Below, one piece after another: positions 339-64,000 of a DNA stretch of 64,000 nucleotides; position 1 is the first letter of the stretch; each line of letters opens with the position of its first letter. The notes under the pieces are model-generated. The model did no database searches, was not told the DNA's origin, and saw nothing but the letters and a program-made list of their open reading frames with translations. The stretch comes from a virus: IMG/VR virus record IMGVR_UViG_3300044618_002075, positions 2,482 to 66,481 of that record, one strand, 5' to 3'. A program made the position numbers and the translations under genes.

Positions 339-360
339 AGGAACAGTCATCCCCTACGGC

Positions 361-383
361 AACTAGGACACGGCGTCCTAGTT
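361..383. repeat. 23-bp palindrome, copy at window start
   Basis: AACTAGGAC-ACGGC-GTCCTAGTT; same motif as seven copies at 60204-63342. Confidence 0.95.
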
Positions 384-410
384 GTCTTTTTACTATCAAC
401 AATCCCGCAG

Positions 411-9952: not shown

Positions 9953-10620
9953 TGGACATCAAGCCCATCACGTGGTCACACTCTGCGCTCAAGAAATACG
10001 AGCAGTGCCCGCGCCAGTATCACGAAGCAATCGTGCTGAAGAAGTATCCGTTCAAGGATACGGCCCAGACGATCTACGGCAAAGACCTACACAAAGCGGT
10101 GGAGCTTTACGGCAGGGACAACACCCCCATGCCGCCACAGTTCGCGTTCGTCCAGCCGGTGGTGGACGCGCTGCTCGCAAAGCCTGGGCGCAAATTGTTC
10201 GAGCACGAGATGGGCATCACGCCTGATCTGCGGCCCTGCGCCTTCGACTCCAAGGAGCGCTGGGTGCGGGGCATCGCAGACCTGCTGATCATCGACGACG
10301 ACAACCTCACGGCCCGGGTCGTGGACTGGAAGTCGGGGAGCCACAAGTACCCTGACTACGATCAACTCCGGCTGATGTCGCTGATGGTCTTCGTGCATTT
10401 CCCGCACATCAGGCGTGTGAATTCCGCGCTCATGTTCGTCGTCAAGAACCACATGGCCAAGCACCGCATGGACCGCGACGAAGCAGATGCAGCGTGGCAG
10501 GACTATCGCGAGCGTGTGGCCAAGCTGGAGGGCAGTTTCGCGCACAGCGTTTGGAACCCGAAGCAGTCGCCGCTGTGCGGCTGGTGTCCGGTGCGAGAGT
10601 GTTCGTTTCATCCCAACTGA
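9952..10620 (+). CDS. PD-(D/E)XK exonuclease, Cas4/AddB-like
   Basis: WSHS...QCPRQY, GIADL...VDWKSG, C-terminal CGWCPVREC. Confidence 0.88.
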   Translation: MDIKPITWSHSALKKYEQCPRQYHEAIVLKKYPFKDTAQTIYGKDLHKAVELYGRDNTPMPPQFAFVQPVVDALLAKPGRKLFEHEMGITPDLRPCAFDSKERWVRGIADLLIIDDDNLTARVVDWKSGSHKYPDYDQLRLMSLMVFVHFPHIRRVNSALMFVVKNHMAKHRMDRDEADAAWQDYRERVAKLEGSFAHSVWNPKQSPLCGWCPVRECSFHPN

Positions 10621-10628
10621 GGTACATC

Positions 10629-10859
10629 ATGGCACGAGACTACAAGCGCGAGTACGAACTGTTCCAAGGCAAGCCCGAGCAGATCAAGAACCGGGCCGAG
10701 CGCGTCAAGGCGCGTCGCATGATGGAGAAGGTAGGCGCAGCGAAGAAAGGTGACGGCAAGGATGTGGACCACATCCGCCCCCTGAAGAGTGGCGGAACGT
10801 CTACGCGAAGCAACCTGCGCATGCGCAGCAGGAGCGCCAATAGAAGCGACAAGAGTTGA
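10629..10859 (+). CDS. small HNH-like protein
   Basis: GDGKDVDHIRPL...NLR...NRS. Confidence 0.75.
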   Translation: MARDYKREYELFQGKPEQIKNRAERVKARRMMEKVGAAKKGDGKDVDHIRPLKSGGTSTRSNLRMRSRSANRSDKS

Positions 10860-10876
10860 ACAACATCGGAGCAAGC

Positions 10877-12466
10877 ATGGAAATAGTAGAAAACAAACTG
10901 CTGGTATTTAAAACCAGACACCCGCATCGCTACAGCCTGATCCCCAAGAGCAAGGCCATCCCGAGAGCTACCGGCGGCTACGACGTCGCCGTGTACTGGG
11001 GCCTGGACGAAGTCCGGGTGCTGCGGAACCTGGGCGTCAAGGACGTCCCCTCGCCCATCTACGGGCGCTACGACTGGCCGGGGCGATACACGCCCATGGC
11101 TCACCAGAAGGAGACCGCGTCCTTCCTCACGCTCAACCGGCGTGCGTTCGTGCTCAACGACCCCGGCACCGGCAAGACCATGGCCGCGCTGTGGGCGGCG
11201 GACTACCTGATGAAGCGCGGAGAGGTTCGGCGCTGCCTGATCCTGTGCCCGCTGTCGATCATGCACACGGCCTGGATGCAGGACATTGGCAACTCGATCA
11301 TCCACAGGAGCGCGGTGGTCTGCCATCACTCGCAGGCGGCACGCCGCATCGAGCTGGTCCAGCAGGACTTCGAGTTCGTCATCTCGAACTACGAGGGGGT
11401 CGAGATCATCGCTGACGAGATCCGCAACGACGGCAGGTTCGACCTGATCATCGTTGACGAAGCGAACGCGTACAAGAACCCGCAGACCTCACGGTGGAAG
11501 AAGCTGGCCGCGATCATCCGGCCAGAGACGCACCTGTGGATGATGACGGGCACGCCCGCTGCGCAGTCTCCCCTGGACGCGTACGGTCTGGCCAAGCTCG
11601 TGAACCCGAAGAACGTGCCCGCGTTCTACACCGCATGGCGCGACATGGTCATGCAGAAGGTCACGATGTTCAAGTGGGCGCCCAAGCGCGACGCGCCTGA
11701 CAAAGTCTTCAGCGCCCTGCAGCCCGCGATCCGCTACACCAAAGCCCAGTGCATGGACCTCCCGCCCGTTGTCACGGCCACACGCGAGGTGCCGCTGACA
11801 CCGCAGCAGGCCAAGTACTACAACGCGCTCAAGACCGCGATGGTGGCGCAGGCCGCAGGCGAGACGATCACCGCAGTCAACGCAGCCGCTGCGCTCAACA
11901 AGCTGCTCCAGATCAGTTGCGGCGTGGCCTACACCGACAACCACGAGACGGTCGAGTTCGACGCCACGCCCCGGCTGAATGTGCTGCTGGAGGCCCTGGA
12001 GCAGACGGAGCGCAAGGTCATCGTGTTCGCGCTGTTCCGCGCAGCCATCTCTACTATCAACAACTTCCTCAACAAGCGCGGCTACGCTTGCGAGGAAATC
12101 CACGGCGGGGTCACGGCTGGCCAGCGGGCGGACATCATCAAGCGCTTCCAGACCATGCCAGAACCACGCGTGCTGGTCATGCAGCCCCAGGCCGCAGCGC
12201 ACGGGATCACGCTGACAGCGGCGGACACGGTGGTCTTCTACGGCCCCCTGATGAGCGTCGAGCAGTACACCCAGGCCATCGCCCGGGCCGACCGCAAGGG
12301 GCAGGACTCGGACAAGGTGACCGTCATCCACATCCAGGGCTCGCCCGTGGAGCGCAAGATGTTCGCGGCCCTGGCAGGCAAGGTCGATGACGCCCGCCTG
12401 CTCGTGGACCTGTTCAACGAAGAACTCAAGGAAAGGGGGTTGCCAGACGCCAAAGGCCGTGTGTAA
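10877..12466 (+). CDS. SNF2-family (SF2) helicase
   Basis: PGTGKT, IVDEA, MTGTP, HGITLT, QAIARADRKGQ. Confidence 0.93.
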   Translation: MEIVENKLLVFKTRHPHRYSLIPKSKAIPRATGGYDVAVYWGLDEVRVLRNLGVKDVPSPIYGRYDWPGRYTPMAHQKETASFLTLNRRAFVLNDPGTGKTMAALWAADYLMKRGEVRRCLILCPLSIMHTAWMQDIGNSIIHRSAVVCHHSQAARRIELVQQDFEFVISNYEGVEIIADEIRNDGRFDLIIVDEANAYKNPQTSRWKKLAAIIRPETHLWMMTGTPAAQSPLDAYGLAKLVNPKNVPAFYTAWRDMVMQKVTMFKWAPKRDAPDKVFSALQPAIRYTKAQCMDLPPVVTATREVPLTPQQAKYYNALKTAMVAQAAGETITAVNAAAALNKLLQISCGVAYTDNHETVEFDATPRLNVLLEALEQTERKVIVFALFRAAISTINNFLNKRGYACEEIHGGVTAGQRADIIKRFQTMPEPRVLVMQPQAAAHGITLTAADTVVFYGPLMSVEQYTQAIARADRKGQDSDKVTVIHIQGSPVERKMFAALAGKVDDARLLVDLFNEELKERGLPDAKGRV

Positions 12467-12931: not shown

Positions 12932-13951
12932 GTGAGCAATGTTGCACTTTTCTCCCCCTCCAATGTCCCTGCATTCGCCAAGAAGCAGGAACTGTCGGCA
13001 CTGGCCAAGTCGCTCGCGGGCGGCGGCGCTGGTGGCGGCAAGCGCGTGTCCATCAAGGGCGGCGTGTTCCGTCTGCTGGTGGACGGCAAGGAGATCGCGG
13101 CCATCGAGGAGCGCTACCTCGACGTCGTGCTGGTGGACGCCGCACCCAAGATCGGGCGCACGTTCTACATGAAGCAGTACGACGGCGACACGCCGAGCGC
13201 CCCGGACTGCTGGAGCGCCGACGGCGAGAAGCCCGATGCGACCGCAGCGAACCCGCAAGCGTCGAACTGCGCAAGCTGCCCGCAGAACGCCAAGGGCTCG
13301 GGGCAAGGCGACAGCCGCGCCTGCCGGTTCAGCCAGCGTCTGGCTGTGGTGCTGGCCAACGACATCGAGGGCGACGTGCTGATGCTGCAGGCCCCTGCGG
13401 CGTCGATCTTCGGCAAGGCCGAGGGCGAGAACATGCCGCTCCAGGCATACGCCCGGTTCTTGGCCGCGCAGAGCGTGTCCCCCGAGACGGTGGTCACGCG
13501 GATGAAGTTCGACACCAAGGCCGAGTCGCCCAAGCTGTTCTTCAAGGCCATGCGCTGGCTCACCGAGGAGGAGTACGCCATCGCTGTGGAGAAGGGCCAA
13601 AGCCCCGAGGCCAAGCAGGCGATCACGATGACCGTGGCGCAGATGGACAAGGTGCCCGCGCCGATGACGCTGGAGGGCACGCCCCCCAAGGCTGCGATGA
13701 AGCCTGCACCGACCCCTGCACCGGCACCTGAGCCCGCGCCTGCTCCCGCTGCTGTCGATGATGGTGACGAGGCGCCGCCGCCTGCTCCGCGCCGTGGCCG
13801 TCCGCCCAAGGCGGTTGTGGAAGCCCGCAAGGCCGCAGAAGCCGCCGCAGAGGAGCCGCCCGAGCCGGTCGTCCAGCGCACGCCAGCCCCGCCCCGTCCC
13901 GCGATGCCGACGCAGCTTGCCAAGCTCGCGGAAGATTGGGATGATGAGTGA
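12932..13951 (+). CDS. putative ssDNA-binding / annealing protein
   Basis: Cys motif CWS...CASCPQN...ACR, Pro/Ala linker, acidic tail EDWDDE; replication context. Confidence 0.65.
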   Translation: MSNVALFSPSNVPAFAKKQELSALAKSLAGGGAGGGKRVSIKGGVFRLLVDGKEIAAIEERYLDVVLVDAAPKIGRTFYMKQYDGDTPSAPDCWSADGEKPDATAANPQASNCASCPQNAKGSGQGDSRACRFSQRLAVVLANDIEGDVLMLQAPAASIFGKAEGENMPLQAYARFLAAQSVSPETVVTRMKFDTKAESPKLFFKAMRWLTEEEYAIAVEKGQSPEAKQAITMTVAQMDKVPAPMTLEGTPPKAAMKPAPTPAPAPEPAPAPAAVDDGDEAPPPAPRRGRPPKAVVEARKAAEAAAEEPPEPVVQRTPAPPRPAMPTQLAKLAEDWDDE

Positions 13952-13957
13952 GTAACT

Positions 13958-13980
13958 GGGGGCGGCATTGCCGCCCCCTT
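13958..13980 (+). terminator. GC-rich hairpin, possible terminator
   Basis: GGGGGCGGC-ATT-GCCGCCCCC then TT. Confidence 0.45.
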
Positions 13981-13986
13981 CGCAAT

Positions 13987-14265
13987 ATGCCGTACTCAAT
14001 CGACACCATCCACCGCATCAGGAAAGGACCGCGCAACCTGGGCAACACGCTCGGGCGCATCGCGGTCGATCTTGATTTCTCCGTTCAGCGTATCGCGAAG
14101 GCCACCAACGCTACGCGTCAGACCGTCTACAACTGGATGGCTGGTGGCGAAGTGATGGGCGCCTACCGCCCGGTCGTTGAGCGCTTGATCAATATACTGC
14201 AGCAAGCACAGACTGCAGACAAAGCATGGGAAGCAGCATGTCAGGAATTCAACCTTCGAGCTTGA
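13987..14265 (+). CDS. Cro-like HTH protein
   Basis: SVQRIAKATNATRQTVYNWMAG. Confidence 0.75.
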   Translation: MPYSIDTIHRIRKGPRNLGNTLGRIAVDLDFSVQRIAKATNATRQTVYNWMAGGEVMGAYRPVVERLINILQQAQTADKAWEAACQEFNLRA

Positions 14266-14420
14266 CACCTAGCGAGTTGGTGCGTTACGCGGAATTGGCC
14301 AACGTCAACGGCCTGCCAAAGCATTGGTGCCAGGAACTCATTGCCGTGCTCGACGCATACGTCACCAAGTACGGCGACGAAGCGGTAGCAAAGCGCCCAG
14401 AGCAAGCACCCCTTTTCTGA
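14238..14420 (+). CDS. small protein with C-terminal QxxLF motif
   Basis: Ends PEQAPLF. Confidence 0.65.
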   Translation: MSGIQPSSLTPSELVRYAELANVNGLPKHWCQELIAVLDAYVTKYGDEAVAKRPEQAPLF

Positions 14421-14434
14421 GGGGGCCGCTCTTC

Positions 14435-17314
14435 ATGGAACCGCAAGAGTTTCTTGCGGCGGTATTGCCGCCGCCAGGGCACGGCTATTACTGCGCCGTC
14501 GCGCTGCCAAGCAGAGTACAGAAGTTCAGCGAAGACATCAGCTACGTCAATGCATACGCCCAACGCTGGGCAGAACAAGGCAAGGACGCGTACTTCGCGC
14601 TGGCTACATTCAGGGAGGAGGGCTCCCGCGAAGCGGTGAACGCCGCATTCATCAAGTCCGTGTTCATCGACATGGACGGCTACGCCTCCAAGAAGGAGGC
14701 GGCATCTGCACTGAGCGCTTTCCTTGAGCGCACCGGTCTCGACGCGTTCGGCACGCCGTGGGTGGTGGCCTCGGGCGGCGGGCTGCACTGTTACTGGGCG
14801 CTGGAGGCGCCGGTTGAGATTGCGCAGTGGAAGCCCGTGGGCGAAGCGCTGAAGCGCCTGTGCAAGCAGGAGTCTCTGGCCATCGACATGACCGTGCCTG
14901 CCGACGCAGCCCGCGTGCTGCGCGTCCCGGGGACACGGAACTTCAAGCCCAAGTACCCCGAGCCCCGGCCCGTCAAGCTGCTGGTCGAGGGCTGCACGGT
15001 GCCGTTCGAGGCGTTCTCGCAGCACATCTTCTCCCTGGTTGGCGAGCCCGAGCCCGCCATGCCAACCCTGTCCCTGCCGGGAACACGCCCCACGGCCACA
15101 GCGACAGGCGTGAAGCTCGTGGAGAACAGCGCCGTCCGGTTCAAGACCATCCTGATGCGCACCAAGGACGGCGACGGCTGCGCCCAGCTTGCGCACTACG
15201 TCAACAACGCCAAGGACGAGGGCATGGAGCCGCTGTGGCGCGGCTGGCTGTCCCAGGCCAAGTACTGTGCGGACGGTGATCGCGCCGCGAAATGGCTGAG
15301 CGACCTGCATCCCTACGATGCGCAGCGCATGCAGACCAAGCTGCGGGAGATCAAGGGGCCGTACCCCTGTCTCAAGTTCGACAGCGAGAACCCGGGCGTG
15401 TGCCAGAAGTGCCCGCACTTCGGCAAGATCACGAACCCCCTGGCGCTTGGCAGAGAGCTTGTGGCCGACAACGCGCCCAAGGAAATCGAGATCACGCCTG
15501 CGGACCCTGACGATCCAGAAGCGCCGCCCATCACGGTCGTGCGCCCCACGCCGCCCAAGGGGTACAGCTACGGCGCCAACGGCGGCGTGTACGTGGACAA
15601 GATGGTGGAGGAGGCCGACGGCACCAAGCGCAAGAAGCAGGTGCTCGTGCTGCCCTACGATCTGTTCGTCGTGGACCTGCTGAACAAGGAGGGCGAGCAC
15701 ACCGTCCACATGGTGGCCAACCGCCCCAACAAGGCCATCGACATCCTCATGCCGCAGCGCTACGCGGTCAGCAAGGACGAATGCGTCAAGGCCCTGGCGC
15801 AGCAGAACATCATCGCGGCGTTCGGCCCGGGCAACGACGTCAATCTCTACGAGTACATCCGGGCGTGCGTGGTGGACGCCAGCACATCCAAGCAGCCCAT
15901 CATCGTGCCGCAACAGTACGGCTGGCAGGAGGACGGCTCGTTCGTCTACAGCGGGCGCGTGTTCCGCCCCGACGGCACCTCCCGCACGGTGCCCATGCCT
16001 GACCTAGCCAACCTGACCCGCAACACGCGGTCCCAGGGCACGCTGGAGGGCTGGCGCAAGCTGCCGCAGATGCTGATCAAGCGCAAGCTGTACGACCATC
16101 TGGCCATCGCCAGCATCGCCTTCGGCGCCCCGCTGATGCGCTTCACCCAGATGAGCGCGTTGACGTTTCATGCAGGCTCGACCGACTCGGGCACCGGCAA
16201 GTCGCTGGCCCTGTCCCTGCTGAACTCCGTGTGGGGGCATCCGATCAGGTATCGCACCGGCAAGTCCACCTCGCCTGTGACCATGCAGCAGCGCATGGGC
16301 AACCTCAACAGCCTGCCGTTCACGAGCGACGAGATCACGCACAAGTCGCGTCAGGACATGGAGTGGTTCCCGGGGTTCATCTTCGACGCGTCCGAGGGCC
16401 AGGGCAAGGAGAAGAGCGAGGTCCACCACAACCGCGAGCGCATCAACAACGTCTCGTGGTTCACGCTGCTGCTCCTGACCTCCAACACGCACATGCACGA
16501 CTACATGTCGGGCGCGCGCAACCATACGTCGCAGGGCGAACTGCTGCGCATGCTGGAGTGGACGCCGGAAGTCAAGCTGGAGTGGTCCCCCGAGGAGGAA
16601 GACCTCCTGAAGTCGCTGAGCAACCACTACGGGGTCGCAGGCGAGCGCTACGTCAAGTGGCTCGTGCAAAACCAAGAGCTTGCACGGAGCATCACGCTCA
16701 AGGTCATCGCCAAGATCAAGGTGGACTGGCAGATGGGCGGGGACGAGCGCTTCTGGGCAGCCGGTTGTGGGTGCGTGATTGCCGGTGCGATCTTGGCGTC
16801 CAGCAAGTATGCGGACATCATTGACCTGCCGGTTGACGGCATCATTGACAGCCTGCACAAGATGGTGATCAAGGCCCGCAAGATCGTGAAGAGCGGCGCC
16901 CGCACCGCCGAGGATGTGCTGAACGCTTTCACCCGCGAGCACTTCGGCTCGTTCGTCGTCCTGCGCATGAGCAACGGGTCGCTGCTGGCGGCACTGGGTA
17001 ACGGGCAGGAGATCGACCAGACCCTGACGCGCAGCAAGGTCATGGGGCGTGTGGAGCACGAGATAGCCAAGCGGGGCTACGTCGAGTACTGCATCGAGGA
17101 GCAGGTGCTCAAGGCGCACTGCGTGTCGATGTCGTTCGGCTACGAAGCGTTCAAGCGCAACATCCAGGGCATACGCGGCTACGTCGTGCAGTTCATCCGC
17201 AAGGACATGATGGCACGCACCCGAGGCCCGCAGATGCGCGTGCGGGCAATCAGCATCAGCCGCCCTATCGAGGACGACCCCCATGCGGAAGTGCTTTCCG
17301 TGGGACCGGCTTGA
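14435..17314 (+). CDS. primase-polymerase (RepB-like) fused to DUF927 helicase
   Basis: FIDMD, SGGGLHCYW, ARVLRVPGT, Cys cluster, YGWQ, Walker A SGTGKS, Walker B DE. Confidence 0.85.
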   Translation: MEPQEFLAAVLPPPGHGYYCAVALPSRVQKFSEDISYVNAYAQRWAEQGKDAYFALATFREEGSREAVNAAFIKSVFIDMDGYASKKEAASALSAFLERTGLDAFGTPWVVASGGGLHCYWALEAPVEIAQWKPVGEALKRLCKQESLAIDMTVPADAARVLRVPGTRNFKPKYPEPRPVKLLVEGCTVPFEAFSQHIFSLVGEPEPAMPTLSLPGTRPTATATGVKLVENSAVRFKTILMRTKDGDGCAQLAHYVNNAKDEGMEPLWRGWLSQAKYCADGDRAAKWLSDLHPYDAQRMQTKLREIKGPYPCLKFDSENPGVCQKCPHFGKITNPLALGRELVADNAPKEIEITPADPDDPEAPPITVVRPTPPKGYSYGANGGVYVDKMVEEADGTKRKKQVLVLPYDLFVVDLLNKEGEHTVHMVANRPNKAIDILMPQRYAVSKDECVKALAQQNIIAAFGPGNDVNLYEYIRACVVDASTSKQPIIVPQQYGWQEDGSFVYSGRVFRPDGTSRTVPMPDLANLTRNTRSQGTLEGWRKLPQMLIKRKLYDHLAIASIAFGAPLMRFTQMSALTFHAGSTDSGTGKSLALSLLNSVWGHPIRYRTGKSTSPVTMQQRMGNLNSLPFTSDEITHKSRQDMEWFPGFIFDASEGQGKEKSEVHHNRERINNVSWFTLLLLTSNTHMHDYMSGARNHTSQGELLRMLEWTPEVKLEWSPEEEDLLKSLSNHYGVAGERYVKWLVQNQELARSITLKVIAKIKVDWQMGGDERFWAAGCGCVIAGAILASSKYADIIDLPVDGIIDSLHKMVIKARKIVKSGARTAEDVLNAFTREHFGSFVVLRMSNGSLLAALGNGQEIDQTLTRSKVMGRVEHEIAKRGYVEYCIEEQVLKAHCVSMSFGYEAFKRNIQGIRGYVVQFIRKDMMARTRGPQMRVRAISISRPIEDDPHAEVLSVGPA

Positions 17315-57619: not shown

Positions 57620-59173
57620 TTAGTAATACGCCGCCCTGCGGCTGCTGCGGAACTCGCGCGGCTCTTCAGGCTCGTCTGACGGCAGGCGGATGAAGCCGCC
57701 CTGGCGCACGCGCATGAGCGCCTGCGTGCAAGTATCGACGTAGTCGTCGTGTTCACCAGCGGGGAAGGCTGCGACCTCCTCGATGACCTCGCGTGCCCAG
57801 CGTGTGTCTGGCGCCCACACGCGCCCGGATGCGAACATGTCCGAGACCGCGTTCAACCGCACGACCTTGTCGTTAGACTGGTTGGCCTTGCCACGTGAGG
57901 GGCTGAACTCGCTGAGCGGTATGCCCAACGCACGCAGCTCCTGAATGAGCGGTGCGCCAGCGGCCTTCTTCTCGATCAGGCACGCGTCAGGCTCCCACTC
58001 ACTGTAGTACTCAATCGCGCGTTTCTTCAGGTCAGGGAACGCCCAGCGCCCCTTGATGGCGTCGAGCAGGATGATATGCGCGTTGTCGTTGTCCTCCTCG
58101 TTGAACCACACACCCCACGTTGTGCAGGCGCTGTAGTCAGCGGAGGTCTTCGTCTCGTGCGCAGTGTCCCACGACTGGATGATGTACTCGCACTTCGGCG
58201 GCTTCTCAGGCTCCCAGATACGCCAAGACTCGCGTTTGATGACCGCCGCGACCTCAGAGGTGGGGTTCTGTATGTACTGCGCCTGCCAGAAGCGCGGGTC
58301 CATGCCCGCACGTTTGGCTTGCAACTCGGCAAGCGGCCACTGCTCAGGCCACAAACTCTTCTCTTCAGGCGTGTGCTCGTTGAGGATGGCAGGAAGCTCG
58401 ACAATCTCCCACTTGTCAGCATCAGGATTCTTGATCTGATGCTTGATGAGCATGCCTGTCAGGTCAATCTCGCTCCACCTCGTCATGATGACGATGATCG
58501 CACCCCCTGGCATCAAGCGCTGGAGTGGACCGGTCTGAAACCAGTTCCACGCCGCATCAAAAGGCGTGCGTGTGCCCGCCTTGATGTCCTGTTCTGAGTG
58601 CGGATCGTCAATGACGAACAAGTCCGCGCCCCGGCCTGCGATGCTGCCACCTACACCGACCGCGTAGTACTGCCCACCCTCGGTCGTAGACCACTTTCCT
58701 GCCGCTTTTTGGTCCTCAGAAACCGCCGTTTTGGGAAAAATGGGCGTGTAGACGTCTGTTGCGATGAGGTTTTTGATCCGACGCCCGTAGTCCTCTGAAA
58801 GAGACGCAGTATGCGTTCCCATGATGACCTTTTTGTGCGGAAACTTGCCCAAAAAGTAGGCGGGAAACAGGTACGACGAGAACTCCGATTTGCCCATACG
58901 GGGCGCGATGTTAATAATTACGCGATGTTTGCGCCCGTTGACGATGTCGTCGAAGATTTTGCTCAGTACGCGGTGGTGGGCGCCTTCTTTGAACCCCGGA
59001 TAGACGCTATGCGCGAAGCCAACCACTGAATTTTGTGCGGCTTGCAGGCGGCTGCGCCTTTCCTTCTCTTCAAGAAGGTCAAAAAGCTCCATTTTTTCCT
59101 TGACGGACATGCGAGGAAGCGCTGCCGTGATGGCCTGTGCCTCTTGCGGGGTCAAGAAATCAGGTAGCTTCAT
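57620..59173 (-). CDS. terL: terminase large subunit
   Basis: APRMGKS, VIDDP, MTRW, SWDTA, HDDYVD. Confidence 0.95.
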   Translation of the reverse strand: MKLPDFLTPQEAQAITAALPRMSVKEKMELFDLLEEKERRSRLQAAQNSVVGFAHSVYPGFKEGAHHRVLSKIFDDIVNGRKHRVIINIAPRMGKSEFSSYLFPAYFLGKFPHKKVIMGTHTASLSEDYGRRIKNLIATDVYTPIFPKTAVSEDQKAAGKWSTTEGGQYYAVGVGGSIAGRGADLFVIDDPHSEQDIKAGTRTPFDAAWNWFQTGPLQRLMPGGAIIVIMTRWSEIDLTGMLIKHQIKNPDADKWEIVELPAILNEHTPEEKSLWPEQWPLAELQAKRAGMDPRFWQAQYIQNPTSEVAAVIKRESWRIWEPEKPPKCEYIIQSWDTAHETKTSADYSACTTWGVWFNEEDNDNAHIILLDAIKGRWAFPDLKKRAIEYYSEWEPDACLIEKKAAGAPLIQELRALGIPLSEFSPSRGKANQSNDKVVRLNAVSDMFASGRVWAPDTRWAREVIEEVAAFPAGEHDDYVDTCTQALMRVRQGGFIRLPSDEPEEPREFRSSRRAAYY

Positions 59174-59754
59174 GCTTGCGGCAACAAAACTGCGTCTGAG
59201 ACGGGCTGCGCGTCAACAACACCCATGAAGCGTGACAGCTTCTCCTTGATCTTGTCATCAAGTTCGGTGTCGGTGACGTTTGTCTTCTTGACCTCGACCC
59301 TGTCGGTAAAGAGCGCCACTTCAGTTACGCGTCCCAGTAGCTCCAATGCGCGCAGACGTATGCGTGCATCAGGGTGCTTGGTCTCTTCGACGATCTTGGC
59401 GACCGCGTAGCCACGGATCTCCTTGGCCTGCTCGACAAACTCCCAGTCGTAGGCGGTCAGCATCCCTGTCAGGTGCTGCACCGCAGCCGGGGTCTTCAGC
59501 GCCAGCAGGCGCTCCTTCTGGGCTTTCTCTGGCGTATCGGGCGCAACGACTGCAGCGAACGCACTCTGAGCCATTGCCGCAGCGTTCTGGGCCTCGGTAG
59601 AGGCTGCCGTGGGTGCCCCCAGGCTGGCCAGCCAGTCGGCGGTGCCGTGCTGCGCGTTGATGACCTGAACAGGCGTGGCTTTGTCCACATCCAACACGGC
59701 ACTGGGCGTGTGGGTCACTACCTCGGGTTCGAAGTCCAGTAGGTGTTCAAGCAT
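59170..59754 (-). CDS. putative terminase small subunit
   Basis: Directly upstream of terL with ATGA overlap; RLRALELLG. Confidence 0.65.
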   Translation of the reverse strand: MLEHLLDFEPEVVTHTPSAVLDVDKATPVQVINAQHGTADWLASLGAPTAASTEAQNAAAMAQSAFAAVVAPDTPEKAQKERLLALKTPAAVQHLTGMLTAYDWEFVEQAKEIRGYAVAKIVEETKHPDARIRLRALELLGRVTEVALFTDRVEVKKTNVTDTELDDKIKEKLSRFMGVVDAQPVSDAVLLPQA

Positions 59755-59813
59755 GTTTGTGCGCAAGGCGCAGAGAAACGGCGCCTGATGAGCGCGGAGT
59801 GTATACTTAGGTG

Positions 59814-59890
59814 GCTTGCTGCTGCAAGCATGCTTGTCTCCTTTCGCCGGGATGTCCCGGCTTGACCCGGGCTGGTGCCCGGGTTTTTTT
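59814..59890 (+). ncRNA. candidate anti-Shine-Dalgarno small RNA
   Basis: TATACT at 59802-59807; hairpin, 16-nt unpaired ATGCTTGTCTCCTTTC, hairpin, terminator hairpin + T7. Confidence 0.6.
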
Positions 59891-59900
59891 ATTTGTGCAT

Positions 59901-59953
59901 GTAAAGGATTTGACAAAACATATTTATTTTTTGTAGTAAAGGATTTGACAAAA
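59901..59953. repeat. 18-bp direct repeat in AT-rich intergenic region
   Basis: GTAAAGGATTTGACAAAA at 59901-59918 and 59936-59953. Confidence 0.9.
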
Positions 59954-60136
59954 TACCTTTGTATTTTGCAATTTTTGGTTGTGAAAAATTAAATGCGCTG
60001 CGGCGGCAGTTTGTAAAAAATGCGTAGTGTGGTTGTGGATCAGTGTTCATATAACCACGCTACCTCGCTGCACAGTTTGGGGCTCCCCGGGTAGGGTGGG
60101 TCTGCTGCCAGCCAATTACCGATGCCCAGATACCCT

Positions 60137-60147
60137 TGTGGTAAAAT
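60137..60147 (+). promoter_or_regulatory. putative extended -10 early promoter
   Basis: TGTG-G-TAAAAT upstream of the first early gene. Confidence 0.55.
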
Positions 60148-60237
60148 AGACGTGTCGGTTGGGGATTCGCCCATCGACGTTTCGCTGCAGTCGCAGCATC
60201 GTGAAGTAGGACACGTTGTCCTAGTTGGAGTAGCAAC

Positions 60238-60684
60238 ATGAAGACGCAACAATTCAAGGCCGCCCTCGCTCGTTTCGTGAAGAAGCAGGGTGATATCGTC
60301 GCAACGCTGCGGCAGGATGCCGTGGATGCGGGTTTCACCACCTGGGAAGCATGCAAGCCCGTGGTGCTGGCCTTCATCAGTGAGAAGTACGGATGCCCCA
60401 TCGTGACCAGCACGTCCAACAACAACCGTGGGCAGGAAGTGCTGGACAGCACGCACTCGAAGTACGAGGCAGCGCTGCAAGCGTTCAAACGCGTGAAGGA
60501 GTCGCTGTGCGGCGATGCGGACAAGCCCGTGCGCAGCTTCAAGCGGGTGCCTGCACCCGTGAGGGCGCGGGTCGTGAAGGACACGACGGCGACGATGGTT
60601 GCCGCCGCCATCGCGGCAGGCCTGACGAAGGCCGAGCTGGCCGAAGTCCTGAAGGCCGTCAAGGCCGGCATTTCCTTCGAGTGA
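60238..60684 (+). CDS. hypothetical early protein
   Basis: GGAG RBS abutting a palindrome; strong codon bias. Confidence 0.8.
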   Translation: MKTQQFKAALARFVKKQGDIVATLRQDAVDAGFTTWEACKPVVLAFISEKYGCPIVTSTSNNNRGQEVLDSTHSKYEAALQAFKRVKESLCGDADKPVRSFKRVPAPVRARVVKDTTATMVAAAIAAGLTKAELAEVLKAVKAGISFE

Positions 60685-60748
60685 GGGTTCAACTAGGACA
60701 CGTTGTCCTAGTTGCCGCTACGAGCGTAGCGGGCAGGCTTGTGCCTGC

Positions 60749-61177
60749 CCAGTGCGCTTGATGCCTGCGTCGCAGGCGGCGTGCTGTTGGAGAGTGTGAT
60801 GGAGCTGTTTCAAAAGGATACCCAGGCGTGGCGGACCTACCGCCGCTTCGCGCTGCAGGGCAGCGCTTGGCTGCGCGGCCTCAACCGCGCGGAGCAGAAC
60901 TTCGTTCTGGGAGGTGCGCTGTACGCGACCCCCGAAGAGGCGGTGAAACGCCTCGGCATCGAGGCCGGCAGACCGGCTCGCTTGGTGCGCACTGCGCACC
61001 GGCGCTGCAGCGCCACATGGGCCGCGCTAGGTGCGGCGTTCGTCGAGGCCACGACGCCAAAGACCTGACGAATGCAACTAGGACGGGTTGTCCTAGTTGA
61101 GCGCACTGGCCTGCCTTCGGGCAGGCCAGTGCGCTTGATGCCTGCGTCGCAGGCGGCGTGCTGTTGGAGAGTGTGAT
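60749..61177. repeat. 52-bp exact direct repeat (two copies) containing a hairpin and RBS
   Basis: 60749-60800 = 61126-61177. Confidence 0.9.
60799..61068 (+). CDS. hypothetical early protein
   Basis: GGAG RBS, bounded by palindromes. Confidence 0.6.
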   Translation: MELFQKDTQAWRTYRRFALQGSAWLRGLNRAEQNFVLGGALYATPEEAVKRLGIEAGRPARLVRTAHRRCSATWAALGAAFVEATTPKT

Positions 61178-61178
61178 C

Positions 61179-61460
61179 ATGCGTAAGTTTCGTGTCGTAG
61201 CCGTGCTGGACCCCCAGCACTTCACCCGCTGCTTCTCCATTCATGGGGCGCTGATGCGCCCCCATAAGGGGGAGATCTACCGCAGCCTCCGGGCTGCGGA
61301 GGCCTATGCCCAACAATGTGCATTGTCGGGATGGTGCGCCTTCATCGTGCGGCGCACCCGCACGGGCTGGGCGCCCGTAGTGACTGCTGCGCCCACCATC
61401 CTCGGCGAAGAGCAAGCCGTGGCGTGGAGCGACATGCGCCGCGCGCGAATGAGTTGGTGA
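61179..61460 (+). CDS. hypothetical early protein
   Basis: GGAG RBS, bounded by palindromes. Confidence 0.6.
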   Translation: MRKFRVVAVLDPQHFTRCFSIHGALMRPHKGEIYRSLRAAEAYAQQCALSGWCAFIVRRTRTGWAPVVTAAPTILGEEQAVAWSDMRRARMSW

Positions 61461-61986
61461 GCATGACCAACTAGGACAACCCGTCCTAGTTCCGCTACCG
61501 AGCGTAGCGGGCAGGCTTGTGCCTGCCCAGCGCGCTTGAAGTTCCACATCGTGGGAAATAATTTCACATTATGGAACGTGTGGTAGTTGTCCCGCACCTA
61601 GCGTGCGTTGGGTAGCACTTCGGACGCTGCAAGTCCTTGATCCGTAAAGCTTTCTTATTTATTATTGGATGAATGATGTCTTATATATACGTATATAGAG
61701 CTGGGAATTTTCTTTTTTGAAAATGCAAGCCGGAATTCCGGAAATCTTTTTCCAGTCCTGTCCTAAGAGATACACTCCTACAAAAGTAGACATCTGGCCA
61801 CGAATCGGATTTCTCAATGCTGACAACGCTACTTAGCGTCCAATGTTGCGTCCACTTCGTCGTGTGTCTGGGACATTCCCGGGTTTTGCTGGACGCAAAC
61901 CTTACACGAAACTTACGCCTGCCCAACTAGGACAGCCCGTCCTAGTTCAACCCCGGGGCACACGCCCCACAGAAAGGAGCTTTCCC

Positions 61987-62604
61987 GTGTACTACGAACG
62001 CTTTTTAACGAAGGCAGACTGCCCGCGCTGCGGGCAGGCACGCCCGCTGCACGAATTTCGGAAGTGGTGGGGACCGAAGCGCATGCTGCGCACGCTCTGC
62101 GTGCATTGCGAGCCCGAGAAATCCCTCGAGGAAATGTCCCCGGAGGAGCGCATCACTGCGCTCGACCAGCAGCGTGCCTACGTCACGCCTGTCCGTGTGG
62201 CGCGCCTCAATGAGGCGGACGCCATGGCGGCCAAGCAGCACCGGTCAACGGGGACGAGGCGGCGCCACGCTGCCGAGCGTGTGCGTGCGTGGTCTCCCAC
62301 GCTCAAGGTCTTGAGGGCTGAGCGCTTGTGGGCGCAGCAGCATGCTGCGGACCCGGCGTCGCCTGCCTGGGGGAGGTTCTTCGAGGCCTACGAGGCGGCC
62401 TTGACGGACGCCTTGCGGCGTGCTGTGGCTGCGCGTGGCAACGCGTCGCGCACGCCCTCGCGGATACAGCCCACGCCTGATCAGGCGGACCCCATGCACT
62501 GGCTGCATGACATCACTATCAACACGCTGCGGCGGCTCTACAGCGACTGCGCCCCTGTGCGTGGTCGCAAGCTGTACCGCGATCCACTGTTCTTGGCCAA
62601 CTAG
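61987..62604 (+). CDS. zinc-finger early protein
   Basis: GTG after GAAAGGAG; CPRC...CVHC; its TAG stop lies within the palindrome at 62599. Confidence 0.7.
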   Translation: MYYERFLTKADCPRCGQARPLHEFRKWWGPKRMLRTLCVHCEPEKSLEEMSPEERITALDQQRAYVTPVRVARLNEADAMAAKQHRSTGTRRRHAAERVRAWSPTLKVLRAERLWAQQHAADPASPAWGRFFEAYEAALTDALRRAVAARGNASRTPSRIQPTPDQADPMHWLHDITINTLRRLYSDCAPVRGRKLYRDPLFLAN

Positions 62605-62644
62605 GACGCGGTGTCCTAGTTAAACACTGAAGGAGAGAAGTGAA

Positions 62645-62998
62645 ATGGAAGTCTTGCATCTGGAGCAACGCGTCACCCACCGCTATGTGGGCACCTACAG
62701 CCACCTCGACGAATGGCAGGACGTCTGTTCCGCCCCGGTCATACTGACCCCTGGCAAACTGGTCAAACCCGGCAACGATTACGACGAGGGGAACACCTAC
62801 CTGCGCTGGGCTACGCTGCCGCGCCTGCCCCGGCGTGCTGACCGAACGCATGCTGCTGGCGCTCTGGAGGACATGCTCTCTAGCTGGGGCTGTCATCACG
62901 AGTACGACTGCTGTGGCTGCGCTTCGGTCAGCACCCGGGTGCTGCGTCGCAAAGGTCGGCGTGTGCTGCTGCGCACGACGGTTACTCGCAACTACTGA
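62645..62998 (+). CDS. hypothetical early protein
   Basis: GCHHEYDCCGC; repeated RBS. Confidence 0.75.
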   Translation: MEVLHLEQRVTHRYVGTYSHLDEWQDVCSAPVILTPGKLVKPGNDYDEGNTYLRWATLPRLPRRADRTHAAGALEDMLSSWGCHHEYDCCGCASVSTRVLRRKGRRVLLRTTVTRNY

Positions 62999-63012
62999 AG
63001 GAGAGAAGTGAA

Positions 63013-63195
63013 ATGACGGAAGTCTGGTACGTGCAGGGCGCAGACCCCGAGTCGCCCATGCCGGTGCTGTTCACCACCAAGCTGGCTGCAGAGATGTACG
63101 CTCGGCAAGTGTGGCCCGAAGCAGACCCCGACACGCGCTACGCGCGGATCTTCTACAGGTCCGTGTGGGAAGAGAAAGACCTGAAGCAGGCGTAG
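63013..63195 (+). CDS. hypothetical early protein
   Basis: Repeated RBS AAGGAGAGAAG. Confidence 0.7.
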   Translation: MTEVWYVQGADPESPMPVLFTTKLAAEMYARQVWPEADPDTRYARIFYRSVWEEKDLKQA

Positions 63196-63211
63196 CCTGG
63201 AAGGAACAGTC

Positions 63212-63292
63212 ATGAACATGCACCGTGACGACAAGCTGCTGCTCGCAGCATGCGCCATCCTTGCAGCACTGATGCTGCTGGGTATCATTTAA
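63212..63292 (+). CDS. 26-aa hydrophobic peptide
   Basis: MNMHRDDKLLLAACAILAALMLLGII after AAGGA. Confidence 0.55.
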   Translation: MNMHRDDKLLLAACAILAALMLLGII

Positions 63293-63356
63293 TTGAGGGG
63301 GCATCCCGCCCCCTGTTTCAACTAGGACATAATGTCCTACTTCAAGGAGAGAAGCA

Positions 63357-63581
63357 ATGAACGGACACAAGAACTGGAACCACTGGAACGTCAGCCTGTG
63401 GATCAACAACGACGCAGGGCTCCACAACGTAGCCCGCTACTTCGTGCGCAGCGCGGCCACCCGTGACATCGCAGCAAAGCGGATGCTTGAGCACCTGAAA
63501 ACGGAAGCAGGCACCACCCACACGCCTGATGGCGCACCGTACAGCGTAAGCAGCATCCGCGCTGCGATGGTCGACATGTAA
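63357..63581 (+). CDS. conserved early protein (NGxKNWxxWNVSLWINND family)
   Basis: Motif plus TPDG; repeated RBS. Confidence 0.75.
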   Translation: MNGHKNWNHWNVSLWINNDAGLHNVARYFVRSAATRDIAAKRMLEHLKTEAGTTHTPDGAPYSVSSIRAAMVDM

Positions 63582-63597
63582 TTCAAGGAGAGAAGCA

Positions 63598-63732
63598 ATG
63601 AGCGGAGTCCGCATCATCTACAACCGCATCCTCGGCGGTTGGTTCGTCGTGCGCGGAGCGCACCAGACGCCCCTCACCGGGCGCTTCGACACCAAGGCAG
63701 AAGCCATCGCATGGCTGTCCCGCAAGAACTGA
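63598..63732 (+). CDS. hypothetical early protein (44 aa)
   Basis: Manual translation; repeated RBS. Confidence 0.7.
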   Translation: MSGVRIIYNRILGGWFVVRGAHQTPLTGRFDTKAEAIAWLSRKN

Positions 63733-63745
63733 AAGGAGAGAAGCA

Positions 63746-63919
63746 ATGAACGGATACATCGCGTTTTACAAGGGTCGCAAGGCCGAAATCCATGCCGCTA
63801 CTGCCTACGAGGCGCAGCAAAAGGCAGCCGCGCTGTTCAAGGCGCGCAAGTCCTACGAGGTCACCGTAGTCCTGGCCGAGAAGAACGGCCAGCAGGTGAC
63901 GCATACACCGACGTTCTGA
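63746..63919 (+). CDS. hypothetical early protein (57 aa)
   Basis: Manual translation MNGYIAFYKG...YEAQQKA; repeated RBS. Confidence 0.7.
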   Translation: MNGYIAFYKGRKAEIHAATAYEAQQKAAALFKARKSYEVTVVLAEKNGQQVTHTPTF

Positions 63920-63941
63920 AACTGAAAGGAGTACCCCAACC

Positions 63942-64000
63942 ATGACCCGCAAGACCCAACCCATCACATCTATCGACTACGCGGGGCGTACCTGCGCCTT
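63942..64000 (+). CDS. 5' end of an early gene (truncated by window)
   Basis: GAAAGGAG then ATG, open to the window end. Confidence 0.55.
   Translation, partial: MTRKTQPITSIDYAGRTCA

Follow-up and report, generated by a model that had tools for sequence, protein, structure and literature searches.

A lineage-specific palindrome at the early-gene boundaries of an uncultured freshwater phage: a possible recognition site for a phage-encoded symmetric factor

The early region of an uncultured freshwater phage is punctuated, at its gene boundaries, by copies of one 23-bp palindrome. We tentatively take this element, at slightly short of an even chance, for a recognition site whose reader is a symmetric factor encoded by the phage; this factor would act on DNA and possibly also on the hairpin in the transcript. 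The palindrome would be the lineage's private junction signal for the early operon, and its reader a sequence-specific, phage-encoded factor of two-fold symmetry, most likely a dimer. The early operon would be transcribed through the sites, each of which would also form a 9-bp RNA hairpin beside an RBS, so that the same factor could act on both DNA and mRNA: as a roadblock closing early transcription when bound to DNA, and as a control of translation or stability when bound to mRNA. The best candidate for this factor would be the product of the first early gene (E1), which would be expressed first and would then shut down its own cassette together with all the others by negative feedback. We infer the reading of the site by a protein, the identity of that protein, its target (DNA or RNA) and the effect of its binding. 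Dual DNA and RNA reading of inverted repeats next to an RBS is described for Aca1 and Aca2 (PMC13551039).

The palindrome array and its surroundings

A pattern scan of the window, meaning the whole stretch of 64,000 nt that was analysed, found eight copies of AACTAGGAC-N5-GTCCTAGTT (Table 1), compared with 0 matches in 100 dinucleotide-preserving shuffles. Six of the eight are perfect, and the other two (P1 and P7) carry one arm mismatch each. The positions are exactly those given by an earlier sequence-only reading of this DNA, which also had the eight spacers, the reverse-complementary pair P3 and P4 and the 385-721 bp spacing of the clustered copies right. A ninth copy was found in the 2.5 kb by which the record exceeds the window, and eight different spacers occur among the nine. 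The ends of the record, which stems from a lake-water phage, overlap by 144 bp, 140 of them identical. The assembly of this 66-kb phage record is therefore circular, and the early region thus extends from window position 59.9 kb across the window end and the record start to window position 383. All nine copies fall within about 6.6 kb of the record, which is this single early region. No further copy was found elsewhere in the 66-kb record by the pattern scan (the reversed-pattern control gave 0), in agreement with the earlier remark that the replication and late modules have none. That remark had gone with placing nearly all copies at gene boundaries; in fact, 9/9 are there, 6-22 nt past a stop codon and/or 11-41 nt ahead of a start codon, dividing the early region into eight blocks with 0-4 genes each. 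The array is real, non-random and confined to the early region.

Table 1. Features of the early region; positions refer to the window unless a contig is named.
Feature	Position	Strand	Context
P1, left-arm variant AAGTAGGAC	60204..60226	.	abuts the GGAG RBS of the first early gene
P2, perfect copy	60691..60713	.	6 nt past the stop of 60238-60684; GC hairpins next
P3, perfect copy	61076..61098	.	7 nt past the stop of 60799-61068
P4, perfect copy, exact reverse complement of P3	61469..61491	.	8 nt past the stop of 61179-61460
P5, perfect copy	61925..61947	.	end of the AT-rich non-coding island; 39 nt before the GTG of 61987-62604
P6, perfect copy	62599..62621	.	includes the TAG stop of 61987-62604; the ATG of 62645-62998 is 23 nt downstream
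P7, right-arm variant GTCCTACTT	63320..63342	.	14 nt before the ATG of 63357-63581
P8, ninth copy TACTAGGACATGTTGTCCTACTT	G000:C1:461-483		outside the window
P9 (361-383), stem extended to 12 pairs, then TTTTT	358..386	+	marks the end of the early cassette region
E1, first early gene, 148 aa	60238..60684	+	between P1 and P2
E4, 205 aa, four-cysteine zinc ribbon and long-helix domain	61987..62604	+
GC-rich hairpin and leader module after P2	60714..60790	+
Extended -10-like element TGGTAAAAT	60139..60147	+	about 55 nt upstream of P1; read by eye
Terminator-like hairpin (59864-59885, T-run), then two copies of AAAGGATTTGACAAAA	59864..59975	+
AT-rich non-coding island between P4 and P5	61492..61924	+	sigma-70-like site 61637-61665; palindrome TATATATACGTATATA

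The right arm of P1 (ending at 60226) directly precedes GGAG at 60227-60230, with the ATG at 60238. The extended -10-like element is possibly the early promoter, judged by eye; it is absent from the list of the promoter scan. P1 lies downstream of this likely promoter and not on it, an observation that weighs against the symmetric-factor reading. The sigma-70-like scan of 59500-64000 (4.5 kb) gave one site, that in the AT-rich island, away from the palindromes, with a shuffle mean of 1.1; by eye, promoter-like sequences were seen 3' of P9 and P4 only. Paralogues of the hairpin and leader module after P2 follow P3 (61099-61176) and P4 (61492-61540), and a 16-bp perfect hairpin with a UUCG loop lies 3' of P3. 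Taken alone, P6 has a centroid structure of about -12.6 kcal/mol. P9 is the only copy that scores as intrinsic-terminator-like: by the criterion of a GC-rich hairpin plus a U-tract, the T-run is absent 3' of the other 8/9 copies.

Lineage-specific palindromes in the relatives

Loci of relatives were fetched via the terminase. Close relatives carry the same array as this phage, and in more distant ones the corresponding places hold arrays of different palindromes, which settles the earlier caution that relatives might lack an analogous array. At least three perfect copies of one palindrome were present on 24/40 early sides, counting the loci with at least 3 kb on that side, compared with 0/45 late sides, where the maximum was one. 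At least 20 palindrome types were seen, among them GAGGAC-N5, GGGGAC-N5, TTGTTGACA-N3 and GGGACGGA-N2, and a complete relative of 66,422 bp has three sites, all within 1.8 kb. The 57 sites of nine lineages have a 7-N3-7 layout in which GAC...GTC is invariant (57/57), the outer bases are lineage-specific and the inner spacer positions are A/T in 47/57 and 45/57 sites. Such a layout resembles the operators of dimeric regulators. A palindrome likewise adjoins the RBS, in the 5' UTR of the first early gene, in relatives. Lineage-specific palindromes are a family-wide feature.

In two relatives (L091 and L092), the palindrome of the lineage precedes a AAGGATTTGTCAG motif, resembling the AAAGGATTTGACAAAA context of this phage. 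It occupies the place of the ordinary terminator hairpin at 59864, which stands before AAAGGATTTGACA here, and this placement speaks against the symmetric-factor reading. L092 holds two palindrome types together (4 copies and 3 copies), L081 and L087 each have a GAGGAC-type site next to one of their own type, and a foreign-type palindrome, GGGGGACGCCCGTCCCCC, occurs in the present genome at G000:C1:411-428. The persistence of foreign-type palindromes beside the resident type would be easier to accommodate without a single cognate binder.

An abundant host REP-type repeat, which the sequence-only reading had named as grounds for giving up its proposal, is rejected: a scan of one genome each of 185,579 species found 46 stretches, none with more than one exact copy. 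Terminases that are 84-94% identical belong to phages with different palindromes, which is hard to fit with one host factor. We thus regard it as extremely unlikely that the sites serve a host protein or a DNA-level function, such as parS-like loading, an injection stop on first-entering DNA or a defence decoy. The array does adjoin the terminase genes, the inferred place of the packaging end and of the first-injected DNA, and the sites are symmetric on double-stranded DNA; however, the assembly is circular, so the physical genome ends are not fixed by the record. The parS-like idea of the earlier reading also found no partner, as a six-frame search of the record detected no ParB N-terminal domain (control detected in 10/14 genomes).

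The lineage-specific sequence of the sites and their location upstream of RBSs, in the early region only, might also recall N4-like hairpin promoters, served by an RNA polymerase that is phage-specific or delivered with the virion, each lineage having a promoter sequence of its own. Two giant ORFs of the virion module, 2562 and 1955 aa long and of a function not assigned by search, are in favour of this view. Nevertheless, we consider it barely credible: neither giant gave an RNA polymerase family match or a DxDGD-type motif, the loop is variable and the element lacks polarity, a T-run lies directly 3' of P9, and host-type promoter-like sequences are found upstream. A genome-wide PF00940 search carries no weight here, as it missed its control.

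Arm sequence, pairing and cassette exchange

The core of the palindromes pairs by Watson-Crick rules in 999/1016 cases, and the 17 exceptions comprise 14 transversion mismatches, two A-C and one G-U. At the three pairs outside the core, G-U occurred 20 times and A-C 68 times, with no wobble bias on the sense strand. Across the 16 junction modules of the own clade, counted by eye, the arms are identical in 16/16. The next GC hairpin of these modules exists in three fully paired sequence variants (in 4, 3 and 6 modules, with 3 composite), and the third hairpin in two (4 and 2), again by eye. The GC hairpins beside the palindromes thus keep their structure as their sequence changes by compensatory substitutions, whereas the arm deviations of the palindromes are uncompensated transversions; no compensated arm variant was found within any one genome among the sites compared. 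Because the arms are invariant, the spacers vary and the neighbouring GC hairpins compensate, the arm sequence would seem to be read, and not the pairing alone. These comparisons argue that the arm sequence itself is constrained in addition to its pairing, and they strengthen the earlier preference for a dimeric protein over a bare hairpin. Furthermore, the spacers are nearly randomised, so the copies are not recent duplicates. That the lineages diverge symmetrically would suit a hairpin no less than a dimer site, which speaks against the symmetric-factor reading.

T-rich tails follow 23/116 sites across the lineages, and A-rich stretches precede 18/116. Few sites are terminator-like, about one in five outside P9, and these together with P9 speak against the symmetric-factor reading. 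The main rival, to which we give a minor but real chance, is that the sites are binder-free stem-loops, i.e. RNA (or transient ssDNA) hairpins at cassette ends, like the promoter-early stem-loop (PeSL) cassettes of T4-like phages (Arbiol et al., 2010, PMC2839356; Comeau et al., 2014, PMC4122927). The hairpins would attenuate or terminate read-through or cap the 5'/3' ends of processed early mRNAs, and copy-and-paste spread along with the cassettes, not a reader protein, would explain why the sites of one genome are uniform. Several observations are in line with this: transcription would pass through the sites, which adjoin stop codons and RBSs and fold as stable hairpins such as P6; P9 and the T-rich tails look like terminators, as does the placement in L091 and L092; the sites start or end homology blocks; cassettes carry foreign-type sites along; and many relatives have G-rich stems reminiscent of the polyG/polyC ones reported for PeSLs (PMC2839356). 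However, the T-tail is missing at about 80% of the sites and upstream A-rich stretches are almost as frequent, the single sigma-70-like site in 4.5 kb does not exceed the shuffles, and the sense strand has no G-U excess. Moreover, the arms stay fixed while the other hairpins of the same modules change by compensatory substitution, and the copies, although not recent duplicates by their spacers, show no compensated arm variant within a genome.

As described (PMC2839356; PMC4122927), PeSLs are, as here, short repeated stem-loop motifs that delimit, within plastic regions, small early genes without a known function, with indels and replacements between close relatives beginning and ending at the motifs, and with stems that are often G-runs and C-runs, as in several relatives of this phage. 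They differ in combining a strong sigma-70 promoter with a terminating stem-loop, whereas most sites here are without a promoter and about one in five has a T-tail; an invariant, exact palindrome per lineage with a variable spacer is a feature of the present phages that those descriptions do not report. By the marks of a PeSL, an intergenic motif at early-gene boundaries, a plastic region and breakpoints at the motif are all present in this phage, the strong sigma-70 promoter was not found in the scan of 59500-64000, and a terminator-like tail occurs at 1/9 copies, next to the 23/116 sites across lineages.

Homology between relatives breaks at the sites or just past them, with breakpoints at -1 to -8 nt relative to a site or 19-23 nt past one, and also within the RBS leader and hairpin modules. 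Phages that are 95-99% identical elsewhere differ in the cassettes between the sites, two site types stand side by side at some junctions, and one paralogous intergenic region lacks exactly the palindrome. The site plus RBS leader is the only sequence common to all junctions, which makes it also the place of cassette exchange by homologous recombination. Since homology breaks at or just after the sites, these comparisons support them as homologous crossover points for the cassettes. This much of the earlier idea of cassette recombination sites stands; the site-specific variant does not, since neither a tyrosine integrase or recombinase nor a serine recombinase was found in the phage (controls detected in 14/14 and 12/14 genomes). 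An integron attC or other site-specific recombination site is rejected for want of the cognate recombinase.

The same cassette differences, breakpoints, adjoining site types and missing palindrome could reflect dedicated recombination sites, at which a phage nuclease or recombinase recognises the palindrome or a cruciform and moves or exchanges cassettes. The candidates would be the Zn-ribbon protein E4, a PD-(D/E)XK nuclease (9880-10620) and a VRR-NUC-like ORF (6894-7193). E4 has weak PHROG matches to endonuclease VII families (E 7e-4 to 6e-3), but it retains only the four zinc cysteines, with no conserved catalytic His or Asn, and is not flanked by sites in other lineages. Together with the missing recombinases and with breakpoints in RBS leaders and hairpin modules, as ordinary homologous exchange predicts, this makes dedicated recombination sites very unlikely in our view.

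Candidate readers and known systems

For the symmetric factor that we favour, the first early protein is the best candidate. E1 belongs to an orphan family with a conserved N-terminal part of about 95 aa, and no Pfam, PHROG, PDB or fold match and no DNA-binding family was found for it. The structure model is moderately confident (pLDDT 69). Modelled as a homodimer, the C-terminus (residues 96-148) scored 0.34 compared with 0.01 for the best control, a mark that 21/30 proteins solved as pairs reached and 0/23 of those solved as single chains. Agreement between the runs is at least 93% of contacts, with a pLDDT of at least 69. In most of the 16 loci with an E1 homologue, the palindrome of the lineage lies 13-23 nt before the ATG and/or 2-6 nt after the stop, and by a strict rule the homologue is flanked on both sides in 8/16. 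The conserved linkage to the site and the predicted dimerising C-terminus thus point to E1 as a putative, unproven binder, and its role as the autoregulated binder, suggested by the sequence-only reading, is likewise unproven. One and the same palindrome accompanies two E1 alleles that are about 62% identical and have unrelated C-terminal halves, and some lineages have a different first-gene family instead; both facts speak against the symmetric-factor reading.

E4 is a second candidate: its cysteines C12, C15, C38 and C41 are invariant and the protein is 97-99% identical in all close relatives having it, with no fold match. A scan of E1 and nine other early proteins gave no HTH or RHH match, the Cro-like 13948-14265 protein has sub-threshold HTH matches only, and no repressor was found among 30 phage proteins scanned.

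If a phage protein reads the sites, the relatives would offer a natural series of cognate site-protein pairs with shifting specificity, usable to study the joint change of a regulator and all its sites. An unlikely but far-reaching extension is that each lineage of this large uncultured freshwater phage group has a private address code, made of its palindrome and a fast-evolving orphan early protein (E1 or the alternative first-gene family) that reads DNA and the RNA hairpin. The pair would silence all early host-takeover cassettes together and limit cassette exchange to phages sharing the code, so that a single 23-bp element would tie regulation to recombination compatibility, and E1 would be a new nucleic-acid-binding class. 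If no protein reads the sites, the PeSL principle of regulatory junctions as recombination points would extend from T4-like myoviruses to an unrelated phage group, and the question would arise how a perfect palindrome stays uniform. The palindromes also mark early genes, probably for host takeover or anti-defence, and show where these genes swap between phages. As such markers they resemble the conserved regulatory sequences that have served to find anti-defence genes in archaeal viruses (PMC11065993).

The sites were also compared with several known regulatory systems. Stoperators are spread over the whole genome of temperate phages. In Cluster A mycobacteriophages, as described (PMC9283540; PMC6550527), they are, like the present sites, many copies of one short sequence in short intergenic gaps of a phage operon, lineage-specific and expected to co-evolve with a phage protein, with a block of elongation proposed; they are, however, asymmetric, oriented to transcription and bound by a monomeric immunity repressor, whereas the present sites are symmetric, span 6.6 kb and occur with no integrase. 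Membership in this class, which the sequence-only reading had entertained, is rejected: the sites form perfect palindromes with spacers found in either orientation (P3/P4), and all nine copies lie in 6.6 kb, so the proposal fails on symmetry and on genome-wide spread.

The Aca autoregulators share with this phage an inverted repeat between promoter and RBS in an immediately-early operon of small counter-defence-type genes, and the published account reports a dimeric regulator that reads both the DNA repeat and the RNA hairpin, with regulation reaching neighbouring operons (PMC13551039). In that account, Aca proteins have a recognisable HTH or RHH, are usually last in the operon and have one to few sites. 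P1, too, is an inverted repeat or hairpin that adjoins the RBS within the 5' UTR; unlike for Aca, the candidate here is encoded first, lacks a recognisable DNA-binding domain and faces nine sites. In lambda N/nut (boxB), a lineage-specific hairpin is read by a small early protein, and hairpin and protein co-vary between related phages. As here, the hairpin occurs both in the first early gene's leader and immediately downstream of that gene; boxB recognition depends on a conserved loop and there are two sites per genome, whereas the nine sites of this phage combine a fixed stem with a free loop. The conserved inverted repeats of phiC31 and the 17-bp palindromes of Cluster O mycobacteriophages are regarded as regulator binding sites. 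They belong to other phage groups and are spread over much of the genome, but there too a single palindrome is repeated many times between genes, close to gene starts.

Distribution of the palindrome and its confinement to the early region

A pattern search of the window returned exactly the eight 23-bp copies that had been described from the sequence alone. Six of these are perfect AACTAGGAC-N5-GTCCTAGTT, and two carry a single arm change (AAGTAGGAC at P1, GTCCTACTT at P7); none of 100 dinucleotide-preserving shuffles held any match. P3 and P4 are indeed exact reverse complements of each other. A scan of the whole record added a ninth copy, P8 (TACTAGGACATGTTGTCCTACTT), beyond the window. All nine copies lie within an early region of about 6.6 kb that extends from about 59.9 kb of the window to its end and from the record start to window position 383, and the remaining genome has none, in agreement with the sequence-only reading; a reversed-pattern control gave zero matches. 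Counted singly, the half-sites TAGGAC and GTCCTA number 13 and 15 in the genome, nine of each lying within palindrome copies. The source record (66,481 bp, the window being its bases 2482-66481) is labelled linear. Since its two ends overlap by 144 bp (window 63857-64000 against record 1-144; 140 identical, the four mismatches near the end), it is a circular assembly, with a true genome length of about 66,337 bp.

Small early genes lie on the plus strand, with a DUF932 gene and the replication genes after them; the portal and further virion genes share the minus strand with the terminase. The early blocks are ordered P1, E1 (the first early gene), P2, E2, P3, E3, P4, a non-coding island, P5, E4, P6, three genes, P7, four genes, P8, four genes and P9. 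The sites are placed 6-22 nt past a stop codon and/or 11-41 nt ahead of a start codon, and gene junctions within blocks have only the conserved ribosome-binding site, without a palindrome. Record positions 400-505 and 1137-1210 are paralogous intergenic regions that both hold a G-rich palindrome, a GC hairpin and ...aacctgtac. P8 is present in the former only, as if 18 bp had been cleanly inserted or deleted between TAC repeats.

Features of the early region and genome (window coordinates unless stated)
Feature	Position	Strand	Remark
P1	60204-60226		abuts GGAG of E1
P2	60691		GC-rich hairpins and common leader immediately 3'
P3	61076		as P2
P4	61469		as P2
P5	61925		
P6	62599		E4 stop codon inside palindrome
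P7	63320		
P8	record 461-483		
P9	361		12-pair extended stem, then TTTTT; sole copy scored terminator-like
E1	60238-60684	+	148 aa; ATG at 60238
E4	61987-62604	+	205 aa
Terminator-like hairpin with T-run, then repeats	59864-59975	+	two direct repeats of AAAGGATTTGACAAAA at 59905-59960
Extended -10-like TGGTAAAAT	60139-60147		about 55 nt upstream of P1; read by eye
Stem-loop GTCGGTTGGGGATTCGCCCATCGAC	60155-60185		about 30 nt upstream of P1
Non-coding island	61492-61924		430 bp, AT-rich; contains palindrome TATATATACGTATATA
Sigma-70-like site	61637-61665		in the island
Ribosome-binding leader copies	62626-62647, 62994-63015, 63343-63359, 63584-63600, 63732-63748		
Paralogous ORFs	4584-4937, 4892-5164		adjacent
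Winged-helix-like	6194-6589		sub-threshold matches only
DNA polymerase	7494-9479	+	
Helicase	10856-12466	+	
HTH-like	13948-14265		sub-threshold matches only
Primase-helicase	14324-17314	+	
Virion-module ORF, 2562 aa	17425-25113	-	LPD38 domain close to C-terminus
Virion-module ORF, 1955 aa	35493-41360	-	
Terminase	57620-59173	-	

An exact-pattern scan of IMG/VR gave 20 stretches. Ten of them can be aligned with this genome, the best blocks reaching 90-99% identity. In these close relatives the palindrome of this phage recurs at corresponding junctions (a relaxed core pattern finds seven copies in L015, six in L020, nine in L029, five in L028, four in L025 and three each in L013 and L016), with the arms unchanged and the spacers differing at some orthologous sites. 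Analogous arrays had been expected in relatives, and they were found among loci fetched by their terminase (67-99% identity to that of this phage; 80 kept of at least 600), where every lineage has an array of a palindrome peculiar to it, placed on the terminase's early side. Examples have spacers of five bases (AAnGAGGAC-N5, GGGGAC-N5, GTGAGAC-N5), three (CAGGGACA-N3, TTTGGGACA-N3, GCGGACA-N3, TTGTTGACA-N3, TAGTGTCA-N3), two (GGGACGGA-N2, GGGGGAGA-N2, GGGGAAC-N2) or one (CGGGTCAC-N1). At least three perfect copies of one 7-bp-arm palindrome occur on 24 of 40 early sides, counting loci with at least 3 kb there, and on 0 of 45 late sides, where the maximum is one copy. A complete relative of 66,422 bp has three sites inside 1.8 kb and zero elsewhere. 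Lineage-own arrays are a general phenomenon among the terminase-fetched loci, and the array studied here is real and non-random; its position is conserved, its sequence specific to the lineage.

The palindrome is not a host repeat, a possibility raised by the sequence-only reading: one genome for each of 185,579 species yielded 46 stretches with at most one copy per stretch. Host or entry functions of the sites are, in our estimate, very improbable. Single copies in unrelated phages and bacteria (among L018-L027 and L030-L075) neighbour unrelated proteins and are treated as chance or independent operators, not as relatives. Two such chance copies of the same 21-bp palindrome stand in regulator contexts: that of L070 is ahead of a ribbon-helix-helix (RHH) antitoxin-like gene, with an extra TAGGACA half-site (6042-6341), and that of L026 is where a winged-helix gene ends, with two similar palindromes after it (5576-5990).

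Sequence constraint, pairing constraint and transcription signals

Of the 1016 core pairs at 152 sites in 27 loci, 999 are Watson-Crick, which leaves 17 exceptions: 14 transversion mismatches, two A-C and one G-U. The main rival reading, which we consider rather unlikely, takes the palindrome as a binder-free stem-loop resembling the promoter-early stem-loops (PeSLs) of T4-like phages. In the three pairs outside the core, A-C (68) exceeds G-U (20) on the sense strand, which is opposite to the expectation under selection for an mRNA stem, and this wobble test lends no support to a purely RNA reading. In the phage's own clade, every arm deviation affects the first or third position of the arm and none is compensated, while the spacer is nearly free (eight different sequences among nine copies). 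Across nine lineages (57 sites), GAC...GTC is invariant, the inner spacer positions are usually A and T (47/57 and 45/57), G/C stands beside the core in 43/57, and the outer three or four bases are lineage-specific; the effective layout is therefore 7-N3-7.

The best internal control is a comparison of the palindrome with its neighbours in the junction modules of the own clade. Its arms are identical in 16 of 16 modules. By contrast, by-eye counts gave three different, fully paired 8-bp stems for the next GC hairpin (four, three and six modules, with three composite) and two paired variants for the third hairpin (four and two modules). The neighbouring hairpins, under a purely structural constraint, thus evolve by compensatory change, whereas the palindrome does not, and this is the main reason why we think that its sequence is read by something. 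The best-supported reading, held tentatively and at somewhat less than an even chance, is that a symmetric factor encoded by the phage recognises the site by its sequence where early cassettes meet. The target of such a factor would be DNA, perhaps together with the transcribed hairpin beside the ribosome-binding site; cassette exchange has its crossover point in the same junction. Aca1 and Aca2 are reported to bind both DNA inverted repeats and 5'-UTR RNA motifs of their own operons (PMC13551039). By their defining features, the array lies outside the stoperator, PeSL, attC, parS and REP classes, although it works like parts of several of them.

T-rich tails follow 23 of 116 sites from 20 lineages, and A-rich stretches precede 18. 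Because T-tails are few and A-rich stretches nearly as frequent, most sites are not intrinsic terminators, and the T-tail test gives no support to a pure terminator reading. P9 and several sites in AT-richer relatives are probably intrinsic terminators, to judge by their sequence. In L091 and L092, the lineage's palindrome stands ahead of a motif, AAGGATTTGTCAG, similar to the repeats at 59905-59960, which speaks for some functional overlap with terminator stem-loops. The segment holding those repeats (59864-59975) sits between the divergent late and early gene blocks, perhaps as a region of promoters or one with a part in packaging.

That the hairpins themselves serve as promoters is a reading to which we assign hardly any probability. 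A sigma-70 scan of 4.5 kb found one promoter-like site, which lies in the AT-rich island and not beside a palindrome. The island, within an otherwise GC-rich early region, is 92-96% conserved in close relatives; it might act as another early promoter or as an origin, or encode a small RNA. (TA)n runs occur in the early regions of L091, L092 and L148. The stem-loop upstream of P1 possibly forms the hairpin at the 5' end of the early mRNA; L081, L085, L087 and L140 repeat its cggttgggga-like core ahead of their first site, with different pairing partners. At least five early genes have a near-identical ribosome-binding leader, (c/t)(a/g)AAGGAGAGAAG(t/c)(g/a)A(a)ATG. This second repeat at junctions stands without the palindrome. 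An Rfam search of 59500-64000 gave no match at gathering score, the best being PtaRNA1 (33.6 bits against 47), which falls on the GC hairpin after P3.

Cassette exchange at the junctions

L015 and this phage are 98.8% identical in their late genes and about 74% identical, over part of its length, in the E1 cassette; the P2-P4 cassettes are replaced. In unsegmented alignments, homology blocks begin 1-8 nt ahead of a palindrome, or stop 19-23 nt past one, through the ribosome-binding site and up to the start codon, or 70-87 nt past one, at the end of the hairpin/leader module. Foreign-type palindromes also occur. The early region of L092 (7472-9363, reverse strand) combines GGGGGACACGTGTCCCCC, in four copies, with GGGGGAGAATTTCTCCCCC, in three copies whose flanks match L091. 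L092 is a natural recombinant, and its mixed array is useful for tracing which gene accompanies which site type. L081 and L087 each have a GAGGAC-type site next to one of their own type, and this genome has a foreign-type GGGGGACGCCCGTCCCCC just ahead of P8 (record 411-428). The breakpoint positions and the foreign-type palindromes show the sites to travel with cassettes and to be crossover points.

That the palindromes are dedicated recombination sites is improbable. A six-frame search of the record, in which controls worked, found no tyrosine integrase, serine recombinase or ParB N-domain, and homologous exchange in the shared junction would be the simplest mechanism in a genome without a recombinase. 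Exchange of this kind was earlier proposed for PeSL cassettes of T4-like phages (PMC2839356; PMC4122927). When DNA contigs from four lake metagenomes were aligned to the region, they broke off close to the repeat modules; one joint (60059 to 60704) has only 29 nt on one side and is too weak to use.

Candidate reader proteins and genome setting

None of ten early proteins scanned has a recognisable DNA-binding domain. E1 belongs to an orphan family of 82 metagenomic proteins, in none of which a Pfam domain was found, and occurs in 34 of the loci from the exact-pattern scan and the terminase fetch. A conserved N-terminal part of about 95 residues is followed by a low-complexity linker and a helical C-terminus of two unrelated forms (predicted model pLDDT 69). 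Searches with the E1 and E4 folds, by Foldseek against PDB and by VIA wide, gave nothing above background, profile searches against PDB sequences nothing significant, and a search of the ESM Atlas with E1 only viral hypothetical proteins. Residues 96-148 of E1 were modelled as a symmetric homodimer with a score of 0.34 against 0.01 for the best control (contact agreement between runs at least 93%, pLDDT at least 69). Among proteins solved as pairs, 21 of 30 attained that mark; among those solved as single chains, 0 of 23 did. The sequence pattern of the C-terminus had suggested an RHH protein, a reading that neither Pfam nor comparison with the real RHH protein of L070 supported.

In most of 16 loci with E1 homologues, the lineage palindrome stands 13-23 nt before the E1 ATG and/or 2-6 nt past its stop, and on both sides in 8 of 16 by a strict script rule. 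Lineages with G-rich short-spacer palindromes (L081, L085, L091, L098 and L140) have a different first-gene family. The correlation of palindrome type with first-gene family is suggestive but confounded by phylogeny. Palindrome types also change on long branches of the E1 tree; phylogeny is a confounder there too, and we draw no claim from it. Counting against E1 as the candidate, two alleles about 62% identical, with unrelated C-termini, share the same palindrome. E4 has an invariant four-cysteine CxxC...CxxC zinc ribbon and confidently modelled long helices (pLDDT 87), resembles no known fold or family, and has homologues in 19 fetched loci; its cassette is the most conserved early one of the clade (97-99% identity) and is not site-flanked in other lineages. 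Its weak PHROG matches to endonuclease VII families rest on the zinc ribbon only.

A phage-database DNA search gave short matches to one small ORF only. Since the best terminase identity to a cultured phage is about 49%, no cultured close relative is available. The 1955-aa virion-module ORF had zero family matches, and its ESM Atlas search gave nothing usable. A sequencing-run search found near-identical DNA in lake-water metagenomes, with no RNA run among those listed. The two adjacent paralogous ORFs of the middle region are a tandem duplication, with MTTWHK-PPPSVGWWPAS...RWWNG and, at the C-terminus, DIEWTDRPASWPERSRT in common.
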